Positions 5,070 to 64,000 of a stretch of 64,000 nucleotides of DNA are shown here, in pieces. The DNA comes from Candidatus Omnitrophota bacterium (GTDB lineage Bacteria > Omnitrophota > Gorgyraeia > Zapsychrales > Fredricksoniimonadaceae): positions 6,027-70,026 of the forward strand of contig CAIOTT010000007.1 of NCBI GenBank assembly GCA_903861305.1. Direction: 5' to 3'. Under the pieces are notes generated by a model. That model saw only the letters and a list, made by a program, of their open reading frames with translations. It did not search any database and had not been told where the DNA came from. The position numbers and the translations under genes are program-made. The first letter of the stretch is position 1, and every line of letters starts with the position of its first letter.

Positions 5070-5897
5070 CTACCTGGAAAGATTCTGCTGACCCGAAAGT
5101 TCCATTTTATCAAGCCGGGACTGAACGCGGCTGCGTCCAACAAGTTTTGCGGCTACGATCTTTTCCTCAACCAGCTTGCGATCCTGCGCATTCGGCTTCA
5201 AATAAAGATACCACTGATAATGCTTAAGCGCTGTTTCCTGGTCGCCAATGAACTCAGCACTGACATAGGCGAGATTGTAATGCGCGTCCGCGTCATACGG
5301 CATCAGGTCAACTGCCTGGTAATACTCGACGACAGACCTCTGATACTCGCCTCTTTCAAAATATACGTTACCCATATTATAGTGGGCACGCGCCAATTCT
5401 TCCTTGAATTTCTCATCTTCAGGGTCAAGGTCGCCGCCCTTTTGCAGGATCTCGTTCGCCTTCTTCTCAACATCGGCAGGGTCGCCTGCGGGAAGGGATG
5501 TCTGGACCTTGGGGGCTTCCTTTTTCTTGGTATCCTGAACGTCTTTAAAATCAGACTCCATCTTTTTCATGCGGGCGTCGACAGTTTCCTTCTGTTGGGA
5601 AAGCAATCCCTTCAACTCTTCGATCTCTTTGGTCTGCTTGGAATTCTGATTGTCTGACCGACGGATCTCCTTGATCAGCTCTTCTCTTTCCTGGCGCATT
5701 TCTTCAACGCGTTTAACCTCGTATTCCTTTTCATTCTTGAGGCGGTCGATCTCTTTTTGAAGGGACTCAGGATCGACCTGCGCACTCTGGGTCGACGGAT
5801 CAGTTGCTGCATGGCATGGGCATGCGGAAAGGAACAAAAAACCACCCGCAGCTGCAGCCACAATGACCGTCATCTTCCAAGAATATACTGGCCTCAT
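5070..5897 (-). CDS. TPR and coiled-coil lipoprotein, possibly a PilF/PilW-like secretin pilotin
   Basis: The track ORF 5070..5930 starts at a GTG. An internal ATG at 5897 gives MRPVYSWKMTVIVAAAAGGFLFLSAC, which carries an LSAC lipobox. A K/E-rich coiled coil follows, then canonical TPRs (AHYNMGNVYFERGEYQRSVVEYYQAVDLMPYDADAHYNLAYV). It lies immediately downstream of the secretin with overlapping stop and start. Confidence 0.6.
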   Translation of the reverse strand: MRPVYSWKMTVIVAAAAGGFLFLSACPCHAATDPSTQSAQVDPESLQKEIDRLKNEKEYEVKRVEEMRQEREELIKEIRRSDNQNSKQTKEIEELKGLLSQQKETVDARMKKMESDFKDVQDTKKKEAPKVQTSLPAGDPADVEKKANEILQKGGDLDPEDEKFKEELARAHYNMGNVYFERGEYQRSVVEYYQAVDLMPYDADAHYNLAYVSAEFIGDQETALKHYQWYLYLKPNAQDRKLVEEKIVAAKLVGRSRVQSRLDKMELSGQQNLSR

Positions 5898-5926
5898 AGA
5901 GAAGATCTCCCTAAACTTTTTAATGA

Positions 5927-24789: not shown

Positions 24790-27700
24790 CTAATTGGAGG
24801 AGGACGTGTTCGAGTTCAACACACGGTCGATCTTTTTCAAGTATTTATCGGTATCCTTATACCCCTGGATCAGGCCATTTACCTGTTCAAAATCCTGGCG
24901 CGCGTCTTGATACATTTTTTTCTTGTAGAACCCGATCGCTTCAAGATAAAGCTGCTCGGTCCCGGCCTCAAACTCCTTGCGGATAGCGACGCGTTGCGCA
25001 TCCAGCAGACGCCTTTCTTCGCTCGCGGCCTGCTTGAGAAGCGCCGTTGTCGGATCTTCCGCGGCAACAGAAGGCTGTGACGCTCCCTCGACGGCCACGC
25101 CGTCATACGCCACATTTTTCAATATCTGTTTGACGTCCTGCTGATTGCGGCGAATGAGTTCCGCCTGGTCCATCCCTTTTCCCACAGCCGGATTCAGGTA
25201 GGATTGGCGTTTTTTCTCTTCGGCCTGCTCGATCTCAAGGAGCTGTTTCGCCACTTGCGCGCGGCGTTCACGTTCCTTCTTGTCCACAGCGTCAGCACGG
25301 GCCATACGGCGCTCCACTTTGCTGGGGGACGTCCTGATCTTTTCTTTGGAAGCCGATTCCGCGCTTGCGTCCGTAACCTCAAGTTTCGTTTCCTTCGTCA
25401 CACGGACCGCCTGGGCCTGCTGCTGCTGCGCCGTGCTTTCCAGGACTTTGGCATCCTTGCTCGAAGGTTCCTTGGAAGGGCCGTCCTGCTGCGTGAATTT
25501 TACCCTTTCCTGATGGTCCTGCGCAACGGCCGCAGACGTTCCCTGTTCCTTCTTGGAAAGCATCTCTTGACGCTGTTGCGTATTCTTCCTTTCGATCTCC
25601 CTCAATTCCTGCTGACGGCGGATGTCGAGGTCTCGCTGCGCCGCGATCAGTTCCTGTGTCTTGTGCTTTTCCCGTTCCTGTGCGCGACGGTCCCTTTCCT
25701 CGACTAATTTCGCCTGGGCCCGGCGCTCTTCCAGAAGCCTGTCTTCCTGGGCCTGGCGCTCGGCTTCAGCCGCTTGTTTCTCCTTTTCCATGGCGCGATC
25801 GATCAGGTCAAGGTACTTGTTGGCCTGACGCTTGTCTTTCTCGGTCCCGACCTGAAAAAGCTCTTCATATTTTATGCGCGCCTCACGGTACCGCTTCGCC
25901 TTGTAAAGAGCAGAACCTTCTTCCGCCACCTCAACAGCGCGTTTGATGTCCGTCGAAGGCGGCACAGCGGCTGCCGCAGCCCCCGTAAGATCAGCCGGCT
26001 TGTGATCCAACCCCCTGACTTGAGCTTTTTCACGAAGATGCCGGGCTTCATAATCATGCTGGGACAAGATACGGTCTATGCGCGTGACATACTTCATGGC
26101 AACCCTGTTCGTAGGATCGGCCCGGGCCGCATCCATGAACTTTACGCGCGCTTCAGCAAAATTCTCCGCCGAATACAATTGCTGGCCATCCCGGATCAGC
26201 ACATCAGATTTCTGCCGCGCCGAAATAAAATCCTCGCCAGGTTTCACGCTCTTGGGCGCCATCCGCTTCTTGGCCGCGCTATCGCGCTGAGAGGCGATCT
26301 CTTCCCAACGCGCCTCAAACTGTTCACGGCGCTGGACCATGCGGTTCTTGGAAACCTGTATCTCCTTGAGGATCGACTCAAGGTCATTGAATTTAACCTC
26401 AACCGCCACATAATCTTTCTTCTGTGAAAGCTCCAGTATACTGAGGTTGAGCGCTGTCGCCTTTTCCGCAAGCCCTTTGATCAAGCCCCGGTCACCCGCC
26501 TCTTCAGCGTTGAGCTTTTCTTCATCCTGCGAACGGTCCAGGCGGGCCATAAGAATGACCGTATCCTTGTATCCGGGACTGATCTTTCCGATATCCGTCA
26601 AACGTTCACGGGCCACAGGATAATCCCTGGTGCGCAGCGCGCTGAGCGCCTGCCGGTACAATATCTCGGCCTTCAACTGGGCTTCTCGCTGTTCGTCCTT
26701 CAGACGTTCAAGATCGGCCCGTTCCTTCTTGCGCCGGTCATCACGTTCCTGGGAGATCTCAGACTTACGCGCCTCAACCTCTTCCTGTGCCTTGGCCCCG
26801 GCTTTTTCTTTCAACGCGTTCTTTTCCGCTGCCATGGCTTTAGCCTGGCGGCGCGCCTGCTCTTCTTCTTTACGCTTGGCCCGAAGCGCGGCTTCCTCTT
26901 CAGCCTTCTTCTGGCGCGCGAGATTTTCCGCGAGACGCTGGTGCTCAGCTTCAAGATTCTCGATCAAACGATCGACCTTCGCAAAAGTGCTGGCCGCGCT
27001 GGACAGCGCCTTATCCTGCGACAAGGATTTTATCTGCTGGTATATCGCGCTGGAACGGGCGGCCAGTGCCGCGATAGCCTTGCTGTCTTCAGCCGGCGAA
27101 CGCACCACGGGGATGTTGCCCTGCGGCGCGGCGCTTGCTGCAGTGACCGCTTGAACAACGGCCTGCCTGGCGGCGCTATCCTGCGCAGATTTAACCTCTT
27201 CGGCCGGAGCTTGTTGCACGGGTTGCGCTTCGGGCGCGGGCGAAACTGTTGCGGACTGTTGCTTCTGCTGCGCCAGCAAAGCCTGTATCTCCTTGATGCT
27301 GTCGAGATATTGACGGGTCGAACGATACCCGTTCTTCAGCTGCATGAGTGTTTCAAATTGAACGCGTGCTTCTTCGTATTTCTTTTCCTTATAAAGGCCG
27401 ACAGCCTCTTTGTAAAGTGCGACTGACTTCTCCTCCTCAGTGGAAATATCATGATCCACCTGCGGGGAAGCCGCCTCCGGAAGGTTGATCCCCGCGTCAA
27501 GCGCCGCCTTGCGCAGTTTTGCCTGCCGCACGTGGACATCCTTGTAGTCAGGCCGCAAAGCTTCAACATCCGTGAATTTCTTGAACGCCTCAGGGATCGA
27601 TCCAGCTGCCTCAAGGACATCGCCTTCCCTATATAACGCCTCAGCTTTGGCCAAACGTTCTTTCTCGAATGCCTTATCCCTGGAACGGGCGTCTTCATCG

Positions 27701-30592: not shown

Positions 30593-33500
30593 TCATTCTA
30601 GCACAGCCTTTGAAGCATCTTCCACAATTTTTTCCCACAATTTTCTGGCCTGCCAAAAGTCGCCTTTGTCAAAATATTCCCGCGCCCGCTGGAACGCGTT
30701 ATAAACCTTTTCTTCAAAGTCAATATGATGCCTGACGAACTGCGCCGCTTCCTCATACATCATCTGGGTCACGATGATGATCCGCTTGTACATCTGCTGT
30801 GCCTCATCATAATGCCCGCGTTTGTTGGCGGCCTGTGCCTGTTGATACACACGGTTCAATTCCAGGACGATCGGGCTGTCTGTGCGTTTGAACTCGGACT
30901 TGATCATCTTCCAGGCATACAGTTCGACACGGCGGTCGATCCACCGGGCCCTGGCGCGGGCGCGCTCCGCGGGGCTTTGGTCGTATAATTTCCCGGTCAT
31001 GCGCAGATAAGGGCCCTGCACCGTATAACTCAGGTTTGTCAGGTCATCCACAAAATTCGTAAAGTTATAGCCGATACCCATTTCCACGTTATCGTTAACG
31101 CTATGCACAGCTTCAAGAAGGAACCCGCTCTTGCGGTCCCTGGCTTCCTGCACCGCAAGCATCCGGTATTCTGCGCCGATCTTCCAATCCTGGTCAATGG
31201 TATAGTTGGCCCGGCTTACGGATAACCAGGTATGTGTCTTCGCAAAATCAAACCCGACGACCTTTTCATCCATGATCCTCAACGCCAGTTTTTCGATCAA
31301 TTCCCATTTATCATTCAGCTCATATGCGGCCCCTGCGGTCAGGACATGCATCTTGGTCGCCTCAATATCGGTCGCGGTCGTCTGGTCTATGGGGCCTTTA
31401 TTCTCTTTATAGGTATATTCACTAAAGAGGTTAACGCGGTCCATGGCCACAGGCCGGTAGGCTGCGCCCAGCATGATCTCCTTGTACCCTGCCTGCGTTG
31501 TTCCGGTATTCATGTCCTTGGTGACGGAATAATCGAACTTCCCGTGGACCGTGGTCTGTTCATTCAACTTCCCGTCAGCCGCTTGATAAAAAACATACTG
31601 GTGCGTATCAACAGGGCCTTTATCGATACGAACCTCCGCCTTGGTGGAACTCTGCAGAACGATCTTGCCTGTTTCCTTGTCCTTGTCAACATACCCCAGG
31701 CCCGTGGACAGCACGGTGCGGTCGGTCAGCGTCCCGTCAAGGTTATGGATCTTGCCCTTCTCCAGGCTGCCCAGCGCGGACACCTTGTCGTTGACGTCAC
31801 CCGTCAAACCGAAAATATTCGAGTCAGTAACGCCGGTCTGGCCATCGGCAATCTTGCGGGCGTACGACGTTTCAAGGTTGCGGCCATCCTTTGTCCGTGT
31901 GATCTTATAGGTGTTACCCTCCTCCTGGCTCGTTGTCCCGATCGAGTAAGAACGTTCCGTCGCGACTTGGATATTCGGGGTCATGGCGCCTTTTTCTCCC
32001 GCCGTGATGACCGTCGTCTTCCCCTCGACCGGCCTGTCGTCGATCTTGACACCGCCCGTTGTTTCACGCCCCGCCGTGTCCCTGCGCGATCCGTCCAGGC
32101 TCAACGCCTGATGGGCCTTTGTCGCGTCCGGTGACTGGCTGGTCTCAACCCCGAGCTTAAGATCAGTATTGTCGACCTTGGTCGCCCCGCTAAGTGCCAG
32201 AGCCCCTTCCTGCGCACCCGTCGTGGTCTGTGATACGCTCGTTAAAGCCTGGAGGGTTGTCGACTCATTCACCTTGGTCGTACCTCCCAGCGCGACCGTG
32301 CTCTTCGGCCCGGAGCTATTGCCCTGTGTCACGGCCGCCGTAGCGTCGAGCGATGTCTTGTCATTGATCTGGCCTTTGCTTCCCAGGGCCACTGTCTGTG
32401 AAAGCTCTCCCGAGCGTGCCCTGGCCAGGGTCAGATCTGTACTCAAAGCCAGTTTGGGCGAAACATTCGCCGTGACACCCGCTTTGGTGGCCGTACCGGC
32501 GCTGCCTACGGTCTCTTCGAGGGTCCCCTTGAGCTTGTTGGTCAATTGGTGGTCAACACCGAGCGTTGTTGCTGTATTTCCCGTCCCTGACACCTCGACC
32601 TGTTCCTTCAAGCGGATGTCCGTCTTTTCATTGAGGGCATACTGCGCTTCTGCCGCGGCGGTGGTGCTGTTGGCCTGCTGGGTCGTGGTCGTCCCGTTGC
32701 CCTTGGTCTGGGTGCTCGAGAACGCCTCGGTCAACCTCAAACGGCGGGCATCATGGACCAGCTGGACCATGGTCGTTGTTGTTTCCTGTCCGCCCACCTG
32801 CATCGAGGTCTGCAGATTACCATTAGTGATCAACCGCTGGACGTCACGGCTCGCGGTGAGGCGGGTGACGGGCGTCATGTCAAACGTCATGGCCATCCCG
32901 TTCATTGCCTTGCCCTGCTGGGACGTGGTCGATCCCGTCGAGAAGCCATCCCCGATCCACTTGTAATAACTCTTAAGGCCGACCCTGTCGAACAGGCGCG
33001 CGTCCTGCGTGATCCCGTACGCCTTGCCCTTGCTGCTCGCGGCGTTGGACACATCGCTGAAGGTGATGCCGCCGTCTGTCGATATAAAATTGTTCTGGGC
33101 CGCGGCCGTGGTCTCGGCGTATTCGGCGCGCACGATAGAATCCTTGGCCAGGTGGACCGTCACATCCTCTCCGCTCAACTGGTATTTGCCGGTTGCCTGC
33201 GTTTCAGAAACATACGTAGCCCCCGCCACAACATTCTTGCCAAGGGCTTCCGTGACCCGTGCGCCCTCGGTCCCCTCGGCCAGCTGGTCATGGACGAAGT
33301 ATTCGTAATCCGCCACCACATACATCGGATCCCCGCCGAGAAGATTGTTGGAGATCAGCTGATTATTATCAACGGACATCGACAAGGGGCGCCAGAAGAG
33401 GATGCGGCCATTGGAGGGGTCAATGGAATAATCAACACCGCTCTTCATCTCCACAATGGATTTCACGAGCCCCGTGACCGCGTCCCTCACCTCCACTTTC

Positions 33501-36500
33501 ACCTTGTCCGTACCCTGCACAATATCATTGTTCTTGAAATAATAGAGCGACCCGCCCGTGGCCAGGAACTCGTTATGCGCAGCCCGCTGGTGGACTTCGG
33601 CGTGAAAGACCGCTATGCCGGTCTTCGACTCGCCGTGATCCGTTGTGGCGACACTCTTGTAATCAAGCTTCCCGCCATACAGCGTCCGGGTATAGTTCGC
33701 GAATTCCGTGTCATTGAACGCCACCGCGTAATTACCCCAGATCGCCTGGGATTTGTCCCAGTCGACAGAAAGGTACAAAGGCCCTTCCGTGTTCGTCGCG
33801 TCGTAATTCAAGGTCGAATTGTCGCCGTAAACCGGATAATATTCATTGTCCTTGAATGTGCGCAGAGCCGCCTTCGTCTGGCGTTCCGTGTCAAAACTTG
33901 ACGTCACGATATATTTCCCCTGGATCTTGCCTTTGAGATAATAGGCCATCTTGCCCTGATCGTAGAACCCGCGGCGATACTGGTCATTGCTCTGGACCGG
34001 CTCGATGTGGCCGCGGTCCATGTTATACCCGACCTTGCCATCGCCCATGGCCACGAACATGAGGTAATCTTCCCCGACCTTCAGCGGCTTCCTGTAGTGG
34101 GCTGTCTGGACCGGTGCGGCCTCAATGACCTCGGGCATACCCGGCGTTGCAGCCGCCGCGTGTTGATCAACCCCCGGATTCACGGATGCCTGCCCCGTGA
34201 CCGGCCTGGACCATCCCTCCTGGCCTTTGTCCTGGGCAGAGACTACCTCAAGTTCGTAATCCCCATCAGGCAAAATGACCTCCATCGGGACAGCCTGTTC
34301 CGCGGACTGCCCGGCGGCGAGGTCCTGCGCGGTCAGCCCGTGTTGTTCAGCCACAGGCACTTCCGCGAACACCTGGCCATTCCTGAGGATCACGACCTGG
34401 CGCACATCACTGCCCACGGGCTTAAGCGTGAGGGTGTCCCCCTTGACCCAGATATTGCGGGTTTTCGTGACATCCCCTCCCGCGAGCGCGAGAAGGAAAT
34501 TATGATATTTCTTTGTGCGGGCCGCGGCCTCATCCTTCTTTTCCTGGGCCGTCCGCAATCGCTGGCGATCAAGCATCTCGGCATCTGTCATCACCTTCAA
34601 CGCCAGCGGCTGTTCTTTGGTCTCGTCCCATTTCTCATGATCGCCCTGGACCTTGAGCACATACGCGTAATGATGGTCCGCGCGGAGGTACCGGCCCAAG
34701 GAATCCCTCCCGTCCCAGTAAACAGGATCATTGATGTTGGAGCGGGTCCCTTTGAACGAGCGCACCAGCCTCTTGGTGTCCGCGTCAACAACATCAAGCT
34801 GCCAGGATACGAGGAACGGCGCGTAATTGGTGAACAGCCGGAACTCGATCTGTTCGATCACGGTGTCGTTGTGCAGGAGTATCCCGTCGTTGAACATGTT
34901 GACGTTCAGCCTTGGCTTGGGTGCGGTCGGGCTTTGGTCGACCTTCAGTTCTTTCTGGAAATACTCTGCATCCTTGCCCACGATCTGGGTGTTATCGATA
35001 TTGACACCGAAATTGACCTTGATGATGCTCCCCGGGGTCACATCCACGACCTGGACCTTGTCCGTTGTCAAATAGGCTCCCGGCGGCAATGTCCTCTCAT
35101 CGAGCCTCAACAGATGCCGGCCTGGCACAAGCGCCGGGATATGGAACTGCCCGTTCTCGTCCGCTGTGACCACCGTCCCGTCTTCCATCGCCAGGCTCAC
35201 ATTGGGCACCGGCCCCTCGATGATCTCCTGGCGGTCTTCATAACTATACTGCGGGTCATCCTGACGGCCATTCTCGTTGAGGTCATAGAACACCTTGCCG
35301 AACACGGTGCCCGCGTCAAAAAGCGGGTCCAGCACGATCTTGACGGTAGCCACGGAATTGTTGGAGATCACAAAGCCCGTGGGATACTGCATGTTCGCCA
35401 CGTTATCATAGGCCCCGGGGGCCACGCCGGCACCGATGACCAGCTGGTAACGTACGATCTTTTTCTGGCCCGGCATGAAATTACCGGGAAGGAACGTGAG
35501 GGGCCTGTTACCCGTCGGATCCGGCATGGGGACCCCATCCAGCAAGGCACGGCCGCTCATGAACTTGAAGCCGGGCGGGATCACGTCCACAAGCCGCGGC
35601 GCGAGCACCGGGTTCGTTGCCGAGAGGCATTCGATCGTGACCGTGTAGGTCACGACCTCACCGACCCTGGCTTCCGTCTTGTTCGCCTTTTTCTCGATCC
35701 TGAACAGATACGGGGTCCCGTCCATGGGCTGGTCGATCTGGAAGACCACGCCGTTCGAGATGAACACATCGCCGCGCGAACCATTGGTGATGCTGCGGCC
35801 CGGCGGGAGCTTGTCATCGGGCAGGGTCGTCGGATAGGTGTACGCCGGTGCCGTGACCAGCAGCTTGTAGGAGCCATCCGCTGTCAGGAACGAGAACACC
35901 CCGTCCGCCGCTGTGATCTTGGGGTTGGTGTCGGTGGCCGCGATGTCGACCCCGGGCACCGCCTTGATCCCGTTCGATCTCAAGATGGTCACACTCGCCC
36001 CGCCGAGCGGCTGGCTGGAGGTCGAGTCAAAGACAACACCGTCGATATCGCTGACGATATATGTCAGAAGCGCGCTTGAAACGCCGTTAACGACAACGGA
36101 AAGGTAATTGTGGCCGCGCCCCAAAGGACGGGTCAGCGTGACCGCGAATGTCCCATCCCCGGCAACAACGCCCTGGCCCATGTAAGCCTCCGGAGGCAGG
36201 GAGAGCAGGTAATGACCTTCCTGGTCTTTGGCGACGATCAGCACCTGGCTTCCCGGCGCGGCGTTGCCCGTGATCACAGGCTTGCTCGTCAGGACGAACG
36301 ATTGATCCAGGGGCGATGTGATCACCGGGACCTGTGCCGGTGTCGGGGTGACAACGACCGAGAACGTCGAAGAATTCCCGGCAAGGGTCAGGTAATACGG
36401 GGTGATCTTGTTCGACACCGGATTGTTCGGGTCCGAATCAAGGACCAGCTTGGTCACCGTTCCCTGTGAGGCATCATCTTTCCCGACAACAACGCGGAAA

Positions 36501-39500
36501 TTCCCGTTCGTATCCGCCGTGGTCGTGGCGATCACCGCTCCGGTCCCGTCCTTGAGGGTAACAACGTGCCCGGGAACGCCGTGCCCGATCACTGTCGGCT
36601 GTGGCCCTGCCGTCGTGCCCGCAGCCGGTGTCAGGATATTGAGCGTGAAGAAAAGCCAGTGGATATTGGTCGACGTGATGCCGTTCTTGTTGTCCACGGA
36701 ATTCATGGCCAGGATATCCGTGGCGGGGTTCACCGGATAATTCGAGAACACGGCCGTGGAATCACGCACATCGACGGCATTGGCCAGCGGCCCTGTGTTC
36801 GGGATGGTCAGCATCCAGGATGTTGGGTTCCCGGCTGTGCTGTCAGTCGTCGATCGCAGGACCAGACTATGCACCGCATTGCCCGCGAGATCCAGGTTAC
36901 CTGCAATGGTCTGGTTGGAACCCTGCGCGAATTTGATGGTCTTGGCCCCAGCGGGTATCTGCGCCTTGAAGTCCTGGAACACCGTATCCCCGCTGATGGT
37001 GACAACATTGTTCCCGCTGAACGTGACCTTCCCGCTGTTATGCGCAAAATTACCCGCGCTGTGGGCGAACCCGCCCTGCACCGTGAAGTCCTTGCCGCTG
37101 CCCGGGGCCGTAAAATTACCGCCCGTCATCCCGAAGTCGCCGCGCAGGTCAATGGATCTGGCGCCGGCATTGAGCGTCGCGCCCGCCACGGTCAGGTTCC
37201 CGTAAATGGTCATGTCAACGCCGCTCACAAAGGCGGAAGGCGTCCCTGAAGGATTATTGTCGACGAGAAGGTTATAAAAGACACTCGGCGCCGTCAGCGG
37301 GAAGCTGCTGCCGACAACCCCGTTGCCGTGGTATTCAAAGGTCCCGGAATAAATATCCGGATCGACGATGTTAACGGCCTCATTGCCCTGAAGATAAATG
37401 GTGCCATCGTTGGAAAATGCCCCGGTCACGTCAAACTTGTAACCATCCGTGTAAAGCCTGGCGTCCACATCCAGGGTCATGTTGATCACGTTAACGTCAT
37501 ACTGTTCTGGATCTGGCGGCACATGCGGCGCCGTGAAATGCGGCGGGTTCGCCATACTGCCGGGGATCCGGACACTATCCGCGACCATCGCGCCGTGCGC
37601 GTTCATGGGCACAAGACCAAGGTCCCAGTTATTGGGCACACGCCAATCCGTGGAAAGGGACCCTGTCCAGGTGAACAGGCTTGATCCGAACAGCCAGTGC
37701 GTGTCGTTGTACAGCGCAAAATTGGAATGGTCCGTCGACTCCCTTGCCACAAGGTATATCCCGCCGCTGGCGTTGGAATCCTTAACATCCACGAAACTGA
37801 TATGCTGCAAACCTCCCGGGACCAGGGTTATGCCCGCGGCCGTACCGGCCAGGTCCGACCTCAGCAGCATTTCATTGCCGGAAAGCCCCTGCAGGGTCAG
37901 GTCATTGGTGATCGTCTGCAACGCCGTATGGTCAAAGGTCAGTTGATGGACCTGGATCCCGGCAGGGATCGTCTTGGTCAATTTATAGAATGTCGTGCTC
38001 CCCGTTAACGCCTGCACGGTCGTGCCCGTGCTGGACGTGGCATCCAGCGCCACGGTGCCGTGATTCGCGTTAAAAGAGAGTCCCGCCGTATTGGTGAAAT
38101 TCCCGGCCACCGCGAGCGTCTTGCCTGTGCCGGGCGCCAGGAACGAACCGCCTGTCATCACGAAATTCCTTCCGACATCGAGGCCCACGGCCGTCGCGTT
38201 AAAAGACGAACCGCTGATGGTAAGGGTCCCGTAGATCGCCAGGTCCAGGTTGGCCGTGAACGCGGAAGCTGAACCCGTAAAAGGTGCCTGCACGATAAGG
38301 TCGTGGAACATGACGGGCCTTCCGCCGCCCGTGATGGTGAACGGTGTCCCCGCGCCATCCCCGTGATACACAAAAGAACCATTGTAAATATCCGGGTCAA
38401 CGATGCTGACCGCCTCGCCTCCATCAAGATAGATCGACCCGTCATTGACGAACGTTCCCGAGACCGTGAGGCCATGCCCGTCAAGATACAGGCTCGCGTC
38501 CACCGCGTACAGGCCAAGGTCCACAAGGACAGGAGCGCCTGAACCCGTGGTCAGGTGCGGTTTATCCACTGTGCTCGGGATCTGGACACTGTCGCCGTTG
38601 CGCGGGGTCTTGCCAAGGTCCCAGTTCGACGGCACTTCCCACGCGTTATGCGACAATGACAACGGGTTCGGTGTCCCGTCCCAGACAAAGCTCGTTGGCC
38701 CGAAGACCCAGTGGGGATAATTGCTCACCCCAACGGAAGCTCCGTCCCCGACCAGCAAGAGGCCGCCGACAGCGCTGTTATCCTGCACCGACACATTATG
38801 GATATCCTGCACCCCGCCCGTTGCCAGCAGGAGGAACGGCGCAGTGCCTGCCGCAGAACTGACAATGTTAAGACGGTGTGTCGCGTCGATCCCGTTAAGG
38901 CTGAGGCTGTTCGCCACCATATAGGTATACGGCGTGCCCGGACCAACCCCGACCCCGAAGGTCAGGGTCTGGGGTCCCGTGACCACATTCTTCGTCAATC
39001 CGTAGAACGCGATACTGCCGCTGATCGTCTGGTTGGAACCCACGAGGGGATTCGAGAAGACGACCGTACCATCATTGGGGGTGAACGTCCCCGCGGTGCG
39101 GGTGAAGTTCCCGGATACCGTGAAGGAGTGGGATGCATCCGGCGTCGTGAAAGCGCCTGACGACAACACAAAATTATCCAGGGCCAGGTTCCCGGCCTGG
39201 GTATCGACGACCCCGCCGTTGACCGCAGTGCCATGGCCCACCGTGAGGGTCTTGCCGGAAGCAAGCAGGACACTCCCGGCCGTGAAGGCCGCGTCCGTGT
39301 ACACGGTCAGATCGACCCCGACCGTGAACGTGCCATGCGAACTTCTCGCGGAATCATCCACGATGAGAGAATGATACCCGGTCAACGGCGTGCCGGCGAC
39401 CGTGAAACTCGTTGTGATATCGACACCCGCGCCATTGGGCCGGCCCAGGTATTTGAAAACACCGGTATCCGTCAAGGCCGCGGCCGCGACCGCCTCATAA

Positions 39501-40666
39501 CCGTCCAGATAAATGGCGCCGTCATTCAACAAAGCGGCGGAGAACGAGGCGTTGTGCCCGTCCAGCGTCACCGTGGTTTTGCTGCCGATGTTCAACGTCC
39601 CGATGTAAATATCGCCATCAAGGACAGGGTCGTAAACAGTCCCGTCCACAATAATGGCGGTGTCCCCTTCTTCAGGCACCACCCCCAGGCTCCAGTTGAA
39701 CGGATTATCCCAATGGCTGTCATATCCCCCTGTCCAGGTATCCGTGATCGCCCCGAACTGCCAGTTGGTGTTGTTATAAACGGCATGGAGCGAATGGTCC
39801 GGAGAGGTCCGTCCCACCAGGACCGTGCCGCCGGTGGCGTCATTGTTCCACACATTGACGTACCGGATGTCCTGGGTCCCGCCAGGCGTAAGGACCAATC
39901 CCGCGGCCGGATTCAGCAAAGCCGGGATACCGGAGCTGTTGTTGAGGGTGAGCAGATGCCCCGCATCAAAACCGCGCAAGGCAATGGTCTTTTCGATCCT
40001 TTGTGTCTGCCCGGGAGGAAAAACGAGGGTGCGTGTGGTCGAGGACGGCATGACTTTTCTTAACACATTGAACGTCGTGCCCCCGTAGATCTCCTGGTCC
40101 GTCCCGTTAAGAACGACCGTATTGCCGCCGTGGACGTAGGATAAGGGCAGCGCGGGAGAAACATTGTTCCAGTTCCCTGTCACGTTCATGGGCATCCCGT
40201 TCGCCTCAAAGATCCCCGCAAGGTTGTTAAAATCCCCCCGGACATAGATCCCGGCATCAACGGCCGGCATGATAAGCCCAAGGCGGGCGGTCGATTCATG
40301 GGTCAAGTTATAGAACGTATCTGTCTGAAGCGCGCCGGCATAGATGGTCTGAAGTCCGGCCACTGCGGAAAAGAAAACCGACCCTGCTCCGGAATCATAA
40401 TACCCTGCACCATAAATGGCCCAGTCACCGTTGAGGCGGATATGCCCCGTGGTCGTTTTAATGACCCCGCGGCTGGTCACCGATCCGGGATGGCCGTTGG
40501 CTGTTTCAACTTTTAAAGTCCCTGTATTGACATTGAGGCGGGAGTTGGAAGGAACGGTAATACCGGCAGCCCAGGCAGCGTAACACGTCAACAGCACCGC
40601 GCATGTGGAAAAAATGGCGATCTTGACGCTCTCGAATAGCTTGTGCAAAGGCTCATGCGCCGGCAT
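30593..40666 (-). CDS. Giant envelope protein (3357 aa): signal peptide, four beta-helix-like ~340-aa modules, Ig-like / CarboxypepD_reg-like / DUF11 / SdrD-B-like domains, long beta-rich barrel-like C-terminal region, helical TPR-like tail
   Basis: The N-terminus is signal-like (VKIAIFSTCAVLLTCYAAWAAG). The modules start W(T/D)G...W..P.NW.LG..P..GD and end (H/N)W(L/V/Q)FG. DUF11-like: FRIEKKANKTEARVGEVVTYTVTIECLS...LVDVIPPGFKF. SdrD-B-like: GKVFYDLNENGRQDDP...ADENGQFHIPALVPGRHLLRL. The final strands alternate hydrophobic residues (WKIGAEYRMLAV...GFLLEAVHSV..VEMGIGYNFTNF...GPYLRMTGKLY). Confidence 0.85.
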   Translation of the reverse strand: MPAHEPLHKLFESVKIAIFSTCAVLLTCYAAWAAGITVPSNSRLNVNTGTLKVETANGHPGSVTSRGVIKTTTGHIRLNGDWAIYGAGYYDSGAGSVFFSAVAGLQTIYAGALQTDTFYNLTHESTARLGLIMPAVDAGIYVRGDFNNLAGIFEANGMPMNVTGNWNNVSPALPLSYVHGGNTVVLNGTDQEIYGGTTFNVLRKVMPSSTTRTLVFPPGQTQRIEKTIALRGFDAGHLLTLNNSSGIPALLNPAAGLVLTPGGTQDIRYVNVWNNDATGGTVLVGRTSPDHSLHAVYNNTNWQFGAITDTWTGGYDSHWDNPFNWSLGVVPEEGDTAIIVDGTVYDPVLDGDIYIGTLNIGSKTTVTLDGHNASFSAALLNDGAIYLDGYEAVAAAALTDTGVFKYLGRPNGAGVDITTSFTVAGTPLTGYHSLIVDDSARSSHGTFTVGVDLTVYTDAAFTAGSVLLASGKTLTVGHGTAVNGGVVDTQAGNLALDNFVLSSGAFTTPDASHSFTVSGNFTRTAGTFTPNDGTVVFSNPLVGSNQTISGSIAFYGLTKNVVTGPQTLTFGVGVGPGTPYTYMVANSLSLNGIDATHRLNIVSSAAGTAPFLLLATGGVQDIHNVSVQDNSAVGGLLLVGDGASVGVSNYPHWVFGPTSFVWDGTPNPLSLSHNAWEVPSNWDLGKTPRNGDSVQIPSTVDKPHLTTGSGAPVLVDLGLYAVDASLYLDGHGLTVSGTFVNDGSIYLDGGEAVSIVDPDIYNGSFVYHGDGAGTPFTITGGGRPVMFHDLIVQAPFTGSASAFTANLDLAIYGTLTISGSSFNATAVGLDVGRNFVMTGGSFLAPGTGKTLAVAGNFTNTAGLSFNANHGTVALDATSSTGTTVQALTGSTTFYKLTKTIPAGIQVHQLTFDHTALQTITNDLTLQGLSGNEMLLRSDLAGTAAGITLVPGGLQHISFVDVKDSNASGGIYLVARESTDHSNFALYNDTHWLFGSSLFTWTGSLSTDWRVPNNWDLGLVPMNAHGAMVADSVRIPGSMANPPHFTAPHVPPDPEQYDVNVINMTLDVDARLYTDGYKFDVTGAFSNDGTIYLQGNEAVNIVDPDIYSGTFEYHGNGVVGSSFPLTAPSVFYNLLVDNNPSGTPSAFVSGVDMTIYGNLTVAGATLNAGARSIDLRGDFGMTGGNFTAPGSGKDFTVQGGFAHSAGNFAHNSGKVTFSGNNVVTISGDTVFQDFKAQIPAGAKTIKFAQGSNQTIAGNLDLAGNAVHSLVLRSTTDSTAGNPTSWMLTIPNTGPLANAVDVRDSTAVFSNYPVNPATDILAMNSVDNKNGITSTNIHWLFFTLNILTPAAGTTAGPQPTVIGHGVPGHVVTLKDGTGAVIATTTADTNGNFRVVVGKDDASQGTVTKLVLDSDPNNPVSNKITPYYLTLAGNSSTFSVVVTPTPAQVPVITSPLDQSFVLTSKPVITGNAAPGSQVLIVAKDQEGHYLLSLPPEAYMGQGVVAGDGTFAVTLTRPLGRGHNYLSVVVNGVSSALLTYIVSDIDGVVFDSTSSQPLGGASVTILRSNGIKAVPGVDIAATDTNPKITAADGVFSFLTADGSYKLLVTAPAYTYPTTLPDDKLPPGRSITNGSRGDVFISNGVVFQIDQPMDGTPYLFRIEKKANKTEARVGEVVTYTVTIECLSATNPVLAPRLVDVIPPGFKFMSGRALLDGVPMPDPTGNRPLTFLPGNFMPGQKKIVRYQLVIGAGVAPGAYDNVANMQYPTGFVISNNSVATVKIVLDPLFDAGTVFGKVFYDLNENGRQDDPQYSYEDRQEIIEGPVPNVSLAMEDGTVVTADENGQFHIPALVPGRHLLRLDERTLPPGAYLTTDKVQVVDVTPGSIIKVNFGVNIDNTQIVGKDAEYFQKELKVDQSPTAPKPRLNVNMFNDGILLHNDTVIEQIEFRLFTNYAPFLVSWQLDVVDADTKRLVRSFKGTRSNINDPVYWDGRDSLGRYLRADHHYAYVLKVQGDHEKWDETKEQPLALKVMTDAEMLDRQRLRTAQEKKDEAAARTKKYHNFLLALAGGDVTKTRNIWVKGDTLTLKPVGSDVRQVVILRNGQVFAEVPVAEQHGLTAQDLAAGQSAEQAVPMEVILPDGDYELEVVSAQDKGQEGWSRPVTGQASVNPGVDQHAAAATPGMPEVIEAAPVQTAHYRKPLKVGEDYLMFVAMGDGKVGYNMDRGHIEPVQSNDQYRRGFYDQGKMAYYLKGKIQGKYIVTSSFDTERQTKAALRTFKDNEYYPVYGDNSTLNYDATNTEGPLYLSVDWDKSQAIWGNYAVAFNDTEFANYTRTLYGGKLDYKSVATTDHGESKTGIAVFHAEVHQRAAHNEFLATGGSLYYFKNNDIVQGTDKVKVEVRDAVTGLVKSIVEMKSGVDYSIDPSNGRILFWRPLSMSVDNNQLISNNLLGGDPMYVVADYEYFVHDQLAEGTEGARVTEALGKNVVAGATYVSETQATGKYQLSGEDVTVHLAKDSIVRAEYAETTAAAQNNFISTDGGITFSDVSNAASSKGKAYGITQDARLFDRVGLKSYYKWIGDGFSTGSTTSQQGKAMNGMAMTFDMTPVTRLTASRDVQRLITNGNLQTSMQVGGQETTTTMVQLVHDARRLRLTEAFSSTQTKGNGTTTTQQANSTTAAAEAQYALNEKTDIRLKEQVEVSGTGNTATTLGVDHQLTNKLKGTLEETVGSAGTATKAGVTANVSPKLALSTDLTLARARSGELSQTVALGSKGQINDKTSLDATAAVTQGNSSGPKSTVALGGTTKVNESTTLQALTSVSQTTTGAQEGALALSGATKVDNTDLKLGVETSQSPDATKAHQALSLDGSRRDTAGRETTGGVKIDDRPVEGKTTVITAGEKGAMTPNIQVATERSYSIGTTSQEEGNTYKITRTKDGRNLETSYARKIADGQTGVTDSNIFGLTGDVNDKVSALGSLEKGKIHNLDGTLTDRTVLSTGLGYVDKDKETGKIVLQSSTKAEVRIDKGPVDTHQYVFYQAADGKLNEQTTVHGKFDYSVTKDMNTGTTQAGYKEIMLGAAYRPVAMDRVNLFSEYTYKENKGPIDQTTATDIEATKMHVLTAGAAYELNDKWELIEKLALRIMDEKVVGFDFAKTHTWLSVSRANYTIDQDWKIGAEYRMLAVQEARDRKSGFLLEAVHSVNDNVEMGIGYNFTNFVDDLTNLSYTVQGPYLRMTGKLYDQSPAERARARARWIDRRVELYAWKMIKSEFKRTDSPIVLELNRVYQQAQAANKRGHYDEAQQMYKRIIIVTQMMYEEAAQFVRHHIDFEEKVYNAFQRAREYFDKGDFWQARKLWEKIVEDASKAVLE
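36650..39751 (-). repeat. Three tandem ~1.0-kb coding modules (aa 306-655, 656-993, 994-1339), plus a degenerate first copy at 39752-40550
   Basis: Recurrent landmarks in the same order: NW.LG..P, LYLDG(H/Y), NDG(A/S/T)IYL.G.EAV, TFY.LTK, (V/L)(V/L)P(G)G.Q.I..V.V.D..A.GG, (H/N)W(V/L)FG. Confidence 0.7.
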
Positions 40667-47127: not shown

Positions 47128-48108
47128 TTACGTTGCCGCAGAAGCCTGCTTGCCAAAACCCAGGAACATCCGGACATCGCTGACGGGTTGAACATTGATT
47201 ATAAGAGGAAGGATGCCCTGGACATCCTGGTCCAGCGCTTTGATCTGCGCCGGGGAAAGGTCGAACCTGAAAGATCCCGCATCGCCTTGAACATCCATAC
47301 CCGCAGCCTGGTCCGTGAGGTCGATACCGCCGTAGGGATCCATGTCTGTGCCACGCGCCTGACCCTTGTCAACACTCGCACTATCTCGCAGTGTTCTATA
47401 AACCTCCCCCTGATATCGCAACTTCTTATATCCTCGATTGGTAGTACCAATAACGGCATCCGCGTAGGTTGACGGCTTCCATACGCGAAAATTATTCTGT
47501 ACCGGGAAATATTGCATATTTTCAATACGTCGAAATTTCACCCAGGCACGGGAGAAAGCCACTAACTGTGGACGTGTCAACCTAGGGATAATATAAACTA
47601 ATGCTACCTGCCTGTTATTGGTCAGCTCAAAAAGCCGGCTTGCAGGTTTGGTATTAAAGACATTGGTCGGGATCGTTGCACGCACAGCCGCCGCAGCTTC
47701 CATTCTGACTTTTTGAGCAGCTCGCCACTGAATGTTCGCTTTCTTCTGAAACGCGACCTTCTCCGTTACGGACATGGCGCCATACTTGTAAATATCTATA
47801 AATGCCAGTCCTTCCAGATTATCACCTGCATTCCATTTCATGCCTATCACCTTCAATCGCATTGTTGTCAAATCATGCATTTTATATGCCGGGTTCTTAC
47901 GTAATGAATCAACAATATCCGAAAACCCTTTCACACGGGCATTGATCATATTCTTATAATCAGAAGGAACATCAAGACCGTAACGTTCAATGATCATCTT
48001 CCTGTCGATGCTGTTAACAATCTCACTGACAGGAAGAGGCTGGTCCTTGACCATATGGTTCATCCAGATCATCATCATCATGATGCTCCTGTCAGGATTG
48101 ACCACCAT
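47128..48108 (-). CDS. C-terminal portion of family copy P2 (326 aa) carrying the shared C-terminal GGIDL tag
   Basis: Ends GGIDLTDQAAGMDVQGDAGSFRFDLSPAQIKALDQDVQGILPLIINVQPVSDVRMFLGF. It has no signal peptide of its own. It is in the same reading frame as 48136..49971, separated only by a TAG plus 9 sense codons. Confidence 0.6.
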   Translation of the reverse strand: MVVNPDRSIMMMMIWMNHMVKDQPLPVSEIVNSIDRKMIIERYGLDVPSDYKNMINARVKGFSDIVDSLRKNPAYKMHDLTTMRLKVIGMKWNAGDNLEGLAFIDIYKYGAMSVTEKVAFQKKANIQWRAAQKVRMEAAAAVRATIPTNVFNTKPASRLFELTNNRQVALVYIIPRLTRPQLVAFSRAWVKFRRIENMQYFPVQNNFRVWKPSTYADAVIGTTNRGYKKLRYQGEVYRTLRDSASVDKGQARGTDMDPYGGIDLTDQAAGMDVQGDAGSFRFDLSPAQIKALDQDVQGILPLIINVQPVSDVRMFLGFGKQASAAT

Positions 48109-48135
48109 GTCCTTGGATGAGACCTTGTCCTTACG

Positions 48136-48138
48136 CTA
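48136..48138 (-). other. Single in-frame TAG codon separating two same-frame ORFs of family copy P2
   Basis: 49971 and 48108 are both congruent to 0 mod 3. The minus strand reads ...GAG AAG AAC ATC TAG CGT AAG GAC AAG GTC TCA TCC AAG GAC ATG GTG GTC... Confidence 0.85.
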
Positions 48139-49971
48139 GATGTTCTTCTCACGCGATCCAAGTTCTTTATTCTTTTCTTGCTGAAGCTCATTGTAGTACT
48201 TGATGAACTCGGGTGGCATCATCTTCAATTCTTTCTCGGCGACAAAAACATTCGTAAGCCATGTACTATATTCGGTCTGGCTTGCGCTTCTTGCCTGCAA
48301 CACAACCTCCTTGCCGTCCTTCGTCCGAATAACAATATTTTGTTCCTTCAACATATTACCGTTAGTTTCACGCGCCATGATACTAAAAATAAGACGCGTG
48401 AGATCATGAACAGTCAAACCGTTCTTTCTAAGATCAGAACCAAAATGATCAAAATGCTTGTTAATGATATGCGTAACCCTCACCGCCATGGCTCGTTTCA
48501 TACGGTCCTTCGCCACAGCATCAAGCCCGGCAGGAACCTTCTTGGCTAAAATACCTGCCAAAAAATCCAGATCATCAATCTTCGCAGCCTTACCGTTGAT
48601 AAGGCCGCTGTCATATTGTTGTTTACCCGAAGTCACAACATGAACAATATCCACCACCTCCCTGGCGTCCAGTTTTTGGGAGGAAACAGCTGTTACCGTG
48701 ATTTTTTCCTGTTGCGGCACATGCGAATAGTACGCAAACCAGCCCATAGCCCCAAAAGACATCACCACCGCCATCTTCAACAAAAGATCTTTGCCAGCCA
48801 GTTTCCTAAGCAAGACCCCCACTTTTGTTAATTTTCCCAGGGCATTATCAGGCGGCCCCTTCTTGATCTCCATCGAAGCGTCAAAATCTTCCCCCGTGGT
48901 AAACCCGCCGGAGAAATACTTGCGCGGGATAAGTTCCTGGGAATAGGTATCCACCTCTTCCTTGATCAGGCTGTAAGCGCCTTTCCGGAACGCTTCCACG
49001 TACCTGTCATAGATCTGGCGGTCCTCTTCCTGCGGGTGCGCGATCTCGTTGCCGAGCGTCTTGTGCCGGTCGATGAACACCTGGGCGAAGGCATTGGGAC
49101 CCGTCCGCTTAACCCCTGTCACACGGCCGGCGCCCGCCATCAATTTCTTTTTGAGCCAGGCCGAAAGGACCAGGGAATGCACGATCTGGCGGAGTGTCGC
49201 GAAATTCGCGCCTTCATTGACCTCTTTCTCCAGCACCGGCACAACGACCTGGCGCAAAACTTCTTTGGCCATGAGTACGGCGCTGCTGTCAGGGGTTCCA
49301 GTTGGGGCCACAAGCGCATTGGCCTGGGCCGCCACATAATCCGACTCGAGCATTACCTTTAACTCGACCTTATCCACAAAGGCGGATATCTGTTTCCCGT
49401 CAGGGCTCAGCATCTCATGCAGCAGCGAACGGCCCGGCATGATCCAAACCTTGTTGAACGTGTCCACCGGGATATCCGTCGTGCCGTAAGCCTCGTAAGC
49501 GCGGCGGTAGACTTCCTTCCAGAACACCTTGCCCGTTGCTCCGTCCGGATGCAGCAAGGACGCGGTCAACTGCTTGAGGATATAATCCTGGGCCAGCAGG
49601 TCGCGCCCCATGGCGGTACGCCCCAGGTCCTCCTGGACAATCCGCTGGCTTTCATACGGCGACAGATTGACCCACAGGTCCTTGTTAGGGATGGTCAACG
49701 ATACCAGGAAATATTTGATCAGCCGCAGGGACTCGTCATTGAATTCCTGTGCTGATAATGACGCGCGGCCTTGATCGAACAAAAAATCCATGCGCAAAGG
49801 GTCCTTCGCGTCCACCCGCATCCCCCGCAGGAGGCAGGGCGCGCTCACAGGACTGAGCGCCAACACCTGACCGGGTGGCGGAAGCACAAGCTGCTGCGCC
49901 ATGGCCGCGGGAACAACCCCGGTCACGATGAACGCCAGGCAGACAAATGACGTAATGATACGTTTAATCAT
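48136..49971 (-). CDS. N-terminal portion of family copy P2 (611 aa): signal peptide, conserved N-domain, TM segment, degenerate transglycosylase-like segment
   Basis: Signal peptide: MIKRIITSFVCLAFIVTGVVPAAMAQ. N-domain motifs: NLSPYESQRIVQEDLGRTAMGRDLLAQDYILKQLTASLLHP, GTTDIPVDTFNKVWIMP, LEKEVNEGANFATLRQ, IPRKYFSGGF. TM segment: LLLKMAVVMSFGAMGWFAYY. IMARETNG aligns with LIARESSF of P1. Confidence 0.75.
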   Translation of the reverse strand: MIKRIITSFVCLAFIVTGVVPAAMAQQLVLPPPGQVLALSPVSAPCLLRGMRVDAKDPLRMDFLFDQGRASLSAQEFNDESLRLIKYFLVSLTIPNKDLWVNLSPYESQRIVQEDLGRTAMGRDLLAQDYILKQLTASLLHPDGATGKVFWKEVYRRAYEAYGTTDIPVDTFNKVWIMPGRSLLHEMLSPDGKQISAFVDKVELKVMLESDYVAAQANALVAPTGTPDSSAVLMAKEVLRQVVVPVLEKEVNEGANFATLRQIVHSLVLSAWLKKKLMAGAGRVTGVKRTGPNAFAQVFIDRHKTLGNEIAHPQEEDRQIYDRYVEAFRKGAYSLIKEEVDTYSQELIPRKYFSGGFTTGEDFDASMEIKKGPPDNALGKLTKVGVLLRKLAGKDLLLKMAVVMSFGAMGWFAYYSHVPQQEKITVTAVSSQKLDAREVVDIVHVVTSGKQQYDSGLINGKAAKIDDLDFLAGILAKKVPAGLDAVAKDRMKRAMAVRVTHIINKHFDHFGSDLRKNGLTVHDLTRLIFSIMARETNGNMLKEQNIVIRTKDGKEVVLQARSASQTEYSTWLTNVFVAEKELKMMPPEFIKYYNELQQEKNKELGSREKNI

Positions 49972-63300: not shown

Positions 63301-64000
63301 CGCGTTCTCACCTGCGGCCACGGTGTTATTCCTTGAAAATGTTTTAAGGATCTTCCCGCCATTCTGTCCCCCCGCCCCCAGGATCGCCCTTAAGGCAAGG
63401 TCATACGTCTGGGCCCCATACGCACTATGCGGTGAACTGTCCCCATAATGGCTGAGTGAAAAACCTGTCACAGGGTTCGACCGGGCGTCGAAGAAACTAA
63501 AGAACTTTTTAATATTCTGCCGCTGTAACGCATCAGGAATGGCGGCAAATACTTTTTCAGGATCTGCCAGCAACATGGCCCCAGCCGCCAAAAGCCCCTT
63601 GATGAAGTTCCGCCTGCTTACAGACGGCCCGGCGGCATCCCTTCCCGTTGACGCAACGGCATTACGGGATCGTTTCAAAGGATCAAAATATGTCGCCACG
63701 GAAAATCTTTTCCCTCTAGAAAAAGATCCCATCGCCTGATCCCTGGAACGCGGCGTGAGCTCTACCATATTTAACAACGCCCCCCCCGAAAAATATTTCC
63801 TGGGGATCATCGTTTGATCAACAGTGTCATGCTCTTCCCGTATAAAGTTAAAGACACCTTTCTTAAAAGCCTCCAGATACATGGCATATATCTTGTCTTT
63901 GCTCTGAGGACCTTTGAACTCCACGCCCAGCACCTTGTTCTGTCCCACATACGCGCTGTTCAAAAATCCCTTTTGGACGCTGCGTTTGAACCATGTCGCC
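60352..64000 (-). CDS. Modular envelope protein, family copy P4 (5' end outside the window): end of N-domain, Tat-like segment, six-hairpin-glycosidase-like region, processive GT2 synthase domain, 4 TM helices, shared C-terminal tag
   Basis: The frame stays open upstream of the track start at 63963 to nt 64000 (..ATWFKRSVQKGFLNSAYVGQNKVLGVEF aligns with MATWFKKSLKESLLGQVYADKGKVAGVKLE of P3). GT2 motifs: NIVIPVFNE, VNDASTDGT, LLDADS, FETGD, QRRRWARG (QxxRW). C-tag: GGVDFNPQNLQLKTSGKG...VDGLTPVIFNIVPVSDPMALI. Confidence 0.8.
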   Translation of the reverse strand, partial: ATWFKRSVQKGFLNSAYVGQNKVLGVEFKGPQSKDKIYAMYLEAFKKGVFNFIREEHDTVDQTMIPRKYFSGGALLNMVELTPRSRDQAMGSFSRGKRFSVATYFDPLKRSRNAVASTGRDAAGPSVSRRNFIKGLLAAGAMLLADPEKVFAAIPDALQRQNIKKFFSFFDARSNPVTGFSLSHYGDSSPHSAYGAQTYDLALRAILGAGGQNGGKILKTFSRNNTVAAGENAPHTINVNYAPAGGIFNNIRITQFNEPNWWDRWEFKVSAGDNAWIGMAALQNYARTSDPDLLRFALERADFLMKLQAVDGGLRYGPRGQFIEGSDLDRQWNAKSTEANESALYFFDMLFAATRKAQYKKAADDIYNYLITKMYDPQTHTFARGESYQQGQWRKDAPEYFAPDIISWAPLERMLADPRFGKDRLERLRTYETMISVTERERGVYEGTAFKGVTFPYGRNAKIVHIEWSSQFALRYLHLAQEYRHQEAAAKDLTLKRFYKSNEDAYQKKYEGLVASLGAYFTVRDGALVAPYAVHTNGEVAANVPTDLGWNTPGGYASVASVYYAFAFAKFDPLVLGGGNFDNAAAQEAVETPVAVGMEDVELFAKLSEERGRVKVRLDGREMPFVYPVAYMDGGTRRTVDPVAMIATISAAANAMQSEDPGFSLKNITRVEVVEEPVDPNIPKEALQIPFQLLVPAGELRALNEEVGSQVADPVREELLKLVIKHGADKAEGQSPEEAEISDLHYLARDNAQLHIPYYPDAKPADYNIVIPVFNEAVKLEFILQQIKKEGYLHKVTFVNDASTDGTKAILDAWKAKEGIEVVHLTQNKKKEGAIRDVLEMFKRQGRLTEKTILLDADSIMMPSHKDKKLDGLINQAAAYMDDQDISGLAFQYDIYLPEKPSFLQKAQYSDFVSMRFVNRLLGKVNQMWVINGRGGIFRSDRLLAVLQDMVPDFETGDLLITVKLMKQGHKVAYFNDLNIVNMDVDTYGDYFKQRRRWARGTTKVVVNEKGFYVKEIKELSRLGIVTVLNTGMRIALMAGLGVFPLARDPFMAMLIGLPVEMAIFTAISCMYSISDRNARNNGAVWKALKWSLYNALLYSTVTVTARLMGFFDAVRFFIKNYGSEAEDPYVAVASPQNEMIAADNGQAAIKKPGIKDLGGVDFNPQNLQLKTSGKGSDMNSDISGMEGLQVDGLTPVIFNIVPVSDPMALISWSD

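Follow-up and report, generated by a model that had tools for sequence, protein, structure and literature searches.

A gene of approximately 947 codons, here called P2, very probably was broken not long ago by a TGG to TAG mutation at an invariant tryptophan of its central, or cargo, domain, with the TAG now acting as a terminator. P2 occupies positions 47128–49971 on the minus strand of a 64,000-nucleotide stretch of DNA from a Candidatus Omnitrophota bacterium (GenBank assembly GCA_903861305.1, contig CAIOTT010000007.1, positions 6,027 to 70,026 of the forward strand); this whole stretch is called the window, and positions are those of the window unless another locus is named. P2 is a disrupted member of a protein family that is recognised by an N-terminal domain (the N-domain) and a C-terminal tag (the C-tag); both modules are present, but not in one open reading frame (ORF). 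The list of ORFs and a translation of 47128–49971 place two minus-strand ORFs, 48136–49971 (611 amino acids) and 47128–48108 (326 amino acids), in a single frame, and on the reverse complement of 47900–48400 the junction reads ...NKELGSREKNI * RKDKVSSKD MVVNPDRSIMMMMIWMNHMV.... A preliminary description of this DNA had reported such a same-frame pair, split by one TAG (48136–48138) and by nine sense codons, RKDKVSSKD (48109–48135), that precede the first ATG (48106–48108); reverse-complement reading and translation reproduce it exactly. The joined halves amount to 947 sense codons with one internal TAG and end in a TAA at 47128–47130. Frame adjacency alone is weak evidence for one former gene. 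In-frame neighbours with only one stop codon between them were counted 92 times among the long ORFs (at least 150 codons apiece) of 1.24 Mb of Omnitrophota DNA, and most of these pairs are closely packed adjacent genes. A generic scan for same-frame pairs is uninformative in genomes as compact as these, and the case for P2 therefore rests on homology.

The downstream half (47131–48135, minus strand, 335 amino acids) was used as the query in an exhaustive HMMER search of 1.84 billion representative proteins, in which 296 library proteins matched with E ≤ 1e-3, mostly through the C-terminal tag. Residues 6–328 of the query match residues 625–952 of P0122, an uninterrupted protein of 961 amino acids (E 6e-38). 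Further uninterrupted matches are P0123 (983 amino acids), P0124 (1278 amino acids, locus L004), P0132 (986 amino acids) and P0134 (1064 amino acids), together with P0232 (795 amino acids, locus L003, where the contig end cuts the protein); P0125 and P0127 (507 and 510 amino acids) are shorter cargo homologues that lack the N-domain. Thus, six of the eight homologues are ORFs of 795–1278 amino acids that include the N-domain. The phmmer alignments begin at query residue 6–8, that is, within the nine codons upstream of the ATG, which are homologous to coding sequence of the intact relatives. In a MAFFT alignment of joined P2 with the eight cargo homologues (23–34% identity), homology is unbroken on both flanks of the stop, with the motifs ...ARE(S/T)xGxM...QARGxxQxEY... 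upstream of it and ...D(L/M)VV...IWxNH...WNGGxN... downstream. The column that holds the stop is tryptophan in all eight homologues, the clearest case being P0232, in which ...PKKNIWTSNS... stands against ...REKNI*RKDK... in P2, and none of the eight has a stop at the homologous position. Since tryptophan has a single codon, the event was TGG to TAG, one G to A transition on the coding strand (C to T on the plus strand). Another 14 columns of the cargo alignment are invariant, and P2 retains all of them; relative to its homologues it carries a two-residue insertion just after the stop.

The comparison with orthologous loci that the preliminary description had proposed was in this way carried out as a homologue search, and it returned intact single ORFs that span the TAG, with tryptophan at its site. 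A genuine division into two genes is refuted for the P2 type of cargo, all of whose homologues are single ORFs, while recent nonsense pseudogenisation, the explanation that had been listed first, is supported by the intact homologues of 795–1278 amino acids and by the position of the TAG on an invariant tryptophan codon. The lesion is taken to be recent because no second one is present (the 335 downstream codons contain neither another stop nor a frameshift), because the 14 invariant cargo residues are kept and because the N-domain and C-tag scores are at or above the family median, it being noted that P2 sequence is included in both of the hidden Markov models (HMMs) that give these scores and that the C-tag model was seeded with it. 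A scan of JGI metagenomes gave no close relatives of the P2 cargo, a word-index search whose query joined the middle to the C-terminal region returned only the two products of the window itself, and the GTDB representatives do not include the source species, the best N-domain match there being 60% identical.

Every assembly examined has the TAG as its consensus, and in this sense it may be called fixed, the samples probably being from one study. An 89,276-nucleotide scaffold of ERZ18640406 (L001) shows 5 differences from the window over 12,951 positions and has the identical TAG. The same TAG is found in L083, a 3,495-nucleotide Logan contig assembled from run ERR4194093 alone that shows one difference, at position 49110, and the gene calls on a 97,957-nucleotide contig of ERZ1426852 match, implying that it is present there as well. 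The 611-residue product is called on five contigs and the downstream product on six. Across the assemblies there are three distinct haplotype combinations, every one with the TAG. As regards the population heterogeneity that the preliminary description had listed, the TGG allele occurs in none of the assemblies examined. The site lies outside any homopolymer.

There is evidence from structure prediction that the stop divides one folded unit. The cargo domain of P2 (47446–48621, minus strand, approximately 392 residues, with the TAG inside it) was delimited from the alignment of the eight homologues and from an AlphaFold2 prediction for the matching 392 residues of P0122, which was calculated with the family alignment. 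The model is a single compact, mostly helical domain (mean predicted local distance difference test score, pLDDT, 84.5; predicted template modelling score 0.79), in which helix 130–151 and helix 174–190 are separated by a short beta bridge that holds the tryptophan. As modelled, the TAG interrupts one compact fold instead of marking the border between two domains; because this predicted fold spans the stop, the 611-residue product would hold only about 40% of it. The cargo domain has no match in Pfam, in the PDB by sequence or in Foldseek searches, and Pfam gives nothing for the eight intact homologues. The E-S/T, QARG and WNGG motifs are reminiscent of lytic transglycosylases (SLT, PF01464), an identity that the searches do not support: no significant match to SLT or goose-lysozyme-like proteins was found with Pfam, with PDB sequence and profile searches or with Foldseek against PDB and BFVD. 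For the N-domain the structural model is of low quality (pLDDT 60), and the Foldseek hits obtained with it are meaningless.

TAG is a normal stop codon in this DNA. It terminates hisS (...RIVRA*) and aspS, both of which have normal lengths, as well as 5 of the 30 long ORFs of the window, and across all the loci examined it ends 17% of long ORFs. The argument of the preliminary description, that a hisS ending in TAG speaks against genome-wide reassignment, consequently holds, and aspS and the five long ORFs point the same way. The survey of stop codons and suppressor tRNAs that it had called for was made over the window and the fetched loci: TAG is in use as a terminator, no tRNA genes were found in the window, and none of the 26 tRNAs of the window and fetched loci has a CUA, UUA or UCA anticodon. 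Since TAG is a normal terminator here, translation most likely stops at 48136–48138.

The sequence of events that we propose starts from an ancestor in which one ORF encoded a signal peptide, an N-domain of about 360 residues, a hydrophobic segment, a variable cargo and a C-terminal tag of about 60 residues. All of these parts can still be located in P2, whose N-domain and C-tag HMM matches lie in frame around the one stop, and intact homologues cover both halves. A putative Sec-type signal peptide, MIKRIITSFVCLAFIVTGVVPAAMA (49897–49971, minus strand), was read from the sequence and not with a signal-peptide predictor. The N-domain (48883–49971, minus strand; HMM match of 524 bits) contains the motifs WVNLSPYE, DTFNKVWI and IPRKYFSGG, the last at its C-terminal end, and keeps all of the family-invariant residues. 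Between it and the cargo is a hydrophobic, transmembrane-like segment, LLLKMAVVMSFGAMGWFAYY (48727–48786, minus strand), also recognised by reading the sequence. The C-terminal tag (47155–47334, minus strand; 84.5 bits), with the pattern GGIDL...G.AG.F.F.L.PAQ......V.G..P.I.N.QPV.D...FLG, ends eight codons ahead of the TAA. A single G to A transition turned the invariant tryptophan codon in the middle of the cargo into TAG. The product would then be an exported fragment of 611 residues comprising the whole N-domain, the hydrophobic segment and the first 40% or so of the cargo fold; with its signal peptide, N-domain and hydrophobic segment this upstream product may still be exported, and the function of the cargo would presumably be lost.

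The remaining 335 codons would form an orphan frame without a signal peptide, translated, if at all, by re-initiation. A candidate site for this lies at 48070–48090 (minus strand), where AGGAG (48086–48090) is followed by ATGATGATGATG (48070–48081). The AGGAG stands 4–7 nucleotides ahead of four ATGs, about 50 nucleotides past the stop, in what is among the better Shine–Dalgarno-like contexts of the window's genes, and the public gene call is a 316-residue product starting at 48078. Termination followed by re-initiation at this run of ATGs is plausible from the upstream contexts and the gene calls; the re-initiated product would have no signal peptide and would consist of no more than the last 60% of the cargo fold and the tag. 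The preliminary description was thus right that the downstream half has no signal peptide of its own; its further statement, that there is no obvious ribosome-binding-site context, does not stand, given the AGGAG before the ATGATGATGATG run.

The family to which P2 belongs is represented by four copies in the window, all on the minus strand: P1 (44184–46943, 919 amino acids), P2 (47128–49971), P3 (57204–60338, 1044 amino acids) and P4 (60352–63999+). They share a layout of hydrophobic leader, N-domain up to IPRKYFSGG, hydrophobic or twin-arginine-translocation-like segment, variable middle and C-terminal tag, the last with the pattern GG(I/V)D(L/F)...P(V/L/T)I...P. Hydrophobic N-termini equivalent to the P2 leader are found in P1 and P3, and segments analogous to its transmembrane-like stretch in P1, P3, P4 and the family gene of locus L002. 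The view that joined P2, at about 947 residues, has the architecture of P1 is borne out: the N-terminal 366 or so residues of the two proteins are 49% identical (E 1e-111) and the C-terminal 100 or so are 31% identical (E 2e-12), the middle parts being unrelated. Between P2 and P3 the N-domain is 46% identical.

The protein collection contains 1201 N-domain relatives, and those with a named source are all from Candidatus Omnitrophota or Omnitrophica. Pfam and NCBIfam searches of both halves of P2 and of P1 gave no match, while among the precomputed Pfam matches on relatives are HAD, NUDIX, ankyrin, protein kinase, HEAT, MafB19-like deaminase and peptidase M48. It should be noted that the word-index search with the N-domain as query returned only proteins of up to 650 amino acids and missed P1 (919 amino acids, 49% identical), although the collection contains it; it is length-biased and was not used for protein lengths. 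N-domain matches amount to at least 579 stretches in the GTDB species representatives, and the N-domain and C-tag HMMs were scanned over the best 80 of these (at least 579) loci together with the window, L001 and L002. The N-domain and the C-tag lie in one uninterrupted ORF in 75 of 112 N-domain occurrences, so that one ORF with both modules is the rule; of the remainder, 22 are cut off by the end of a contig, five end with no recognisable tag and the others are disrupted.

Several further observations concern the family and its surroundings. The five differences between the window and L001 (at 49110 and 47445 in P2 and at 45982, 44395 and 44384 in P1, in 12.9 kb) are all nonsynonymous and all within these two genes, with none in 7.3 kb of flanking housekeeping genes; at the two P2 positions L083 combines the variants in a third way. 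Small as the numbers are, they suggest that selection on the family is relaxed or diversifying. The cargo of P4, as read from its sequence, resembles a multi-pass membrane glycosyltransferase. A twin-arginine-like motif, SRRNFIKGLLAAGAMLLA (63565–63618, minus strand), occurs inside P4 right after the N-domain, and another, SRRSFLGALSLLVGVAVVGC, which includes a lipobox-like cysteine, follows the N-domain in the same manner in the family gene of L002 (5644–5709); judging by these internal motifs, it looks as if the cargo brings its own export signal. Upstream of the family cluster are two very long minus-strand ORFs, 30593–40666 (3357 amino acids) and 24790–30519 (1909 amino acids), which agrees with an earlier report of long proteins in this phylum (10.1101/2023.11.21.568195). 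Neither full-text searches nor two Omnitrophota papers (10.1101/2023.11.21.568195; 10.64898/2026.06.07.730766) yielded any mention of the N-domain/C-tag family or of stop-codon use.

P2 is not the only interrupted member: disruptions affect about 10% of the complete copies found elsewhere. Lone in-frame TAGs are found in P2, in L002, in L085/L086 and in L087, and lone in-frame TAAs in L045 and L046. Frameshifts at poly-G tracts occur in L019 (near 11309, G11), L059 (near 12864, G7), L082 (near 3935, G9) and L084 (near 6032, G8); L078 has a frameshift without a tract and L067 two adjacent stops. The closest N-domain relative of P2, P0003, is encoded at L002 (PEAR01000117.1, from the metagenome-assembled genome, or MAG, GCA_002753745.1), where the family gene is syntenic and follows genes for LysM, PhoH, 7TM-HD, YbeY and RecO proteins. 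It is split into 475 and 391 residues by one in-frame TAG (5896–5898). Its cargo is unrelated to that of P2, and an intact 1437-residue ORF in L006 spans the site, aligning a threonine, in a variable linker, with the TAG. Because the cargo differs, the place is not homologous and the aligned residue is threonine, the L002 TAG is an independent event. L006 also contains, at about 3001–7313 (plus strand, frame 1), four consecutive ORFs of 444, 472, 195 and 323 codons with a single TAG between each and starts 3–5 codons past each TAG, which could be the closely packed genes of an operon or a single gene that has been interrupted. The TAGs of L085 (about 6060–6062), L086 (about 4283–4285) and L087 (about 2514–2516) lie 13–15 codons after FSGG; the frame continues past them for more than 1285 codons, and in L087 it reaches the C-tag. 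Of four ‘N-domain-only’ database proteins (341–366 amino acids) that were examined, P0021, P0023 and P0037 are fragments of interrupted genes (L084, L085/L086 and L087), and the fourth, P0057 (L088), is an artefact of a scaffold gap.

The composition of these interruptions is unremarkable. The lone stops are TAG in four cases, TAA in two and TGA in none, against a mutational expectation of 0.54/0.32/0.14; judged from codon content, 54% of the one-step nonsense paths in P2 lead to TAG, as do 60% of its transition paths and 47–58% of the one-step paths in other genes tested. An amber-specific excess was accordingly rejected, TAG being the expected commonest nonsense product. Among the frameshift-type breaks, four of five are at coding-strand poly-G tracts, which may be homopolymer errors of short-read sequencing or real slippage and phase variation. 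A general enrichment of such tracts was considered and rejected (G/C tracts of at least seven at 3.9 per 100 kb in family genes versus 3.3 outside them). The G8 tract of L084 and an intact G8 in P4 of the window (63780) are both within the FSGG codons. The simplest reading of the recurrent breaks is a fast birth-and-death turnover of a large paralogous family. It is doubtful that single in-frame stop codons and poly-G frameshifts, whether they lie between modules or inside them, serve across the family as a means of switching or tuning, by contingency or readthrough; if true, such switching would vary which cargo is displayed or delivered.

There are points that weigh against regarding P2 as a nonsense pseudogene. 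Its 335 downstream codons are undecayed, which also fits continued selection, whether through readthrough or on an independent product. In L002 the syntenic gene that follows recO likewise has one in-frame TAG, albeit at a non-homologous site and in another cargo, and the family genes of L085/L086 and L087 carry a lone TAG soon after the N-domain, so that interruption recurs. In addition, all of the evidence is from assembled sequence. One form that continued selection could take is a functional split, in which an exported 611-residue N-half and a C-half of 316–317 residues, made by termination and re-initiation, would both be used. The undecayed frame, the AGGAG 4–7 nucleotides before four consecutive ATGs at about 50 nucleotides beyond the stop and the fact that gene callers pick that start in every assembly would all accord with this. 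We consider it unlikely, however, because the break lies inside one compact fold, parting the ARE(S/T)xG and QARG motifs from IWxNH and WNGG. Furthermore, the C-half has neither signal peptide nor N-domain, whereas 75 uninterrupted genes hold N-domain and C-tag in one ORF; every homologue of the P2 cargo is a single ORF, and the AGGAG is merely the codons D-R-S of the ancestral frame.

Alternatively, the TAG might be subject to leaky or regulated readthrough, so that some ribosomes would make the full 947-residue protein and the stop would set the ratio of short to long product. The intact downstream frame, with its conserved residues and high-scoring C-tag, is what one would expect in that case; lone in-frame TAGs recur among other family genes, and the stop (AUC UAG CGU AAG) is followed by C, UAG-C being a comparatively weak termination context in E. 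coli. Against this, the stop is not conserved (tryptophan in eight of eight homologues, the other TAGs of the family being at non-homologous positions), the RNA after it shows no particular structure (48020–48150, minus strand, 131 nucleotides, folds no better than shuffled sequences, z = -0.97), the window contains no tRNA and no suppressor is present among the 26 tRNAs. Near-cognate decoding would mostly insert a residue other than tryptophan at an invariant core position, and the four TAG, two TAA and no TGA match mutational expectation. With no conserved stop, RNA structure or suppressor tRNA, readthrough is left without positive support, and the undecayed downstream frame, the one point that truly favours it, is equally accounted for because the mutation may be young; we therefore hold this explanation to be quite improbable. 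That the TAG is decoded as an amino acid, as pyrrolysine or through a reassigned amber codon, is less credible than any other explanation considered here. Nothing specific speaks for it beyond the lone in-frame TAGs in several family genes of related MAGs, while hisS and aspS of normal length and 5 of 30 long window ORFs end in TAG, no tRNA(CUA) is found in the window or the fetched loci, and the aligned residue is a tryptophan one transition away. Sequencing or assembly error, to which the preliminary description had given a place and under which the true genome would have TGG or the consensus would be unrepresentative, could be suspected in any metagenome assembly such as this one. It has become very unlikely, because the TAG is shared by no fewer than three assemblies of differing sequence (window, L001 and L083, to which gene calls add the ERZ1426852 contig) and its site is not in a homopolymer.

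A recently broken P2 may be compared with better known systems. It is like a nonsense pseudogene in a multi-copy surface or effector family in having a one-step stop at a conserved sense codon and intact paralogues and homologues, and like birth-and-death gene families in being one of several copies (four in the window), with about a tenth of complete copies elsewhere broken. Unlike the typical nonsense pseudogene it has no further lesion, and none of the assemblies has another allele as its consensus; for these two reasons either the lesion arose very recently or the fragments remain in use. Programmed readthrough is known for the A1 protein of RNA phage Qbeta (UGA) and the tobamovirus replicase (UAG-CAA-UUA). 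P2 shares with these a single in-frame stop followed by a long, coding-looking open extension, but its stop is unconserved, lacks a stimulatory context or RNA structure and lies inside a folded domain. In the phase-variable contingency genes of Neisseria, Haemophilus and Campylobacter, slipped-strand mispairing occurs at homopolymers, and other members of the family are similarly frameshifted at G7–G11 tracts; the P2 lesion, in contrast, is a substitution that is not readily reversible, and the family genes are not enriched in G/C tracts. With polymorphic toxin and effector families the N-domain/C-tag proteins have in common a constant N-terminal module, a highly variable middle and many paralogues per genome. 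They differ in their conserved C-terminal tag and internal hydrophobic or twin-arginine-like segment, and neither a secretion system nor an immunity gene was identified at this locus. The family may thus be said to resemble a polymorphic effector or sorting system, the likeness being one of organisation.

For annotation, the consequence is that 48136–49971 and 47128–48108 should be treated as one disrupted gene rather than as two hypothetical proteins. Many of the public ‘N-domain-only’ proteins of 341–366 amino acids are probably fragments of interrupted genes, and they both inflate and distort the architecture that the family seems to have. P2 lends no support to stop-codon recoding in Omnitrophota, and its break is an event of an ordinary kind. 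The more interesting object is the family itself, which is large, phylum-specific, modular and completely unannotated.

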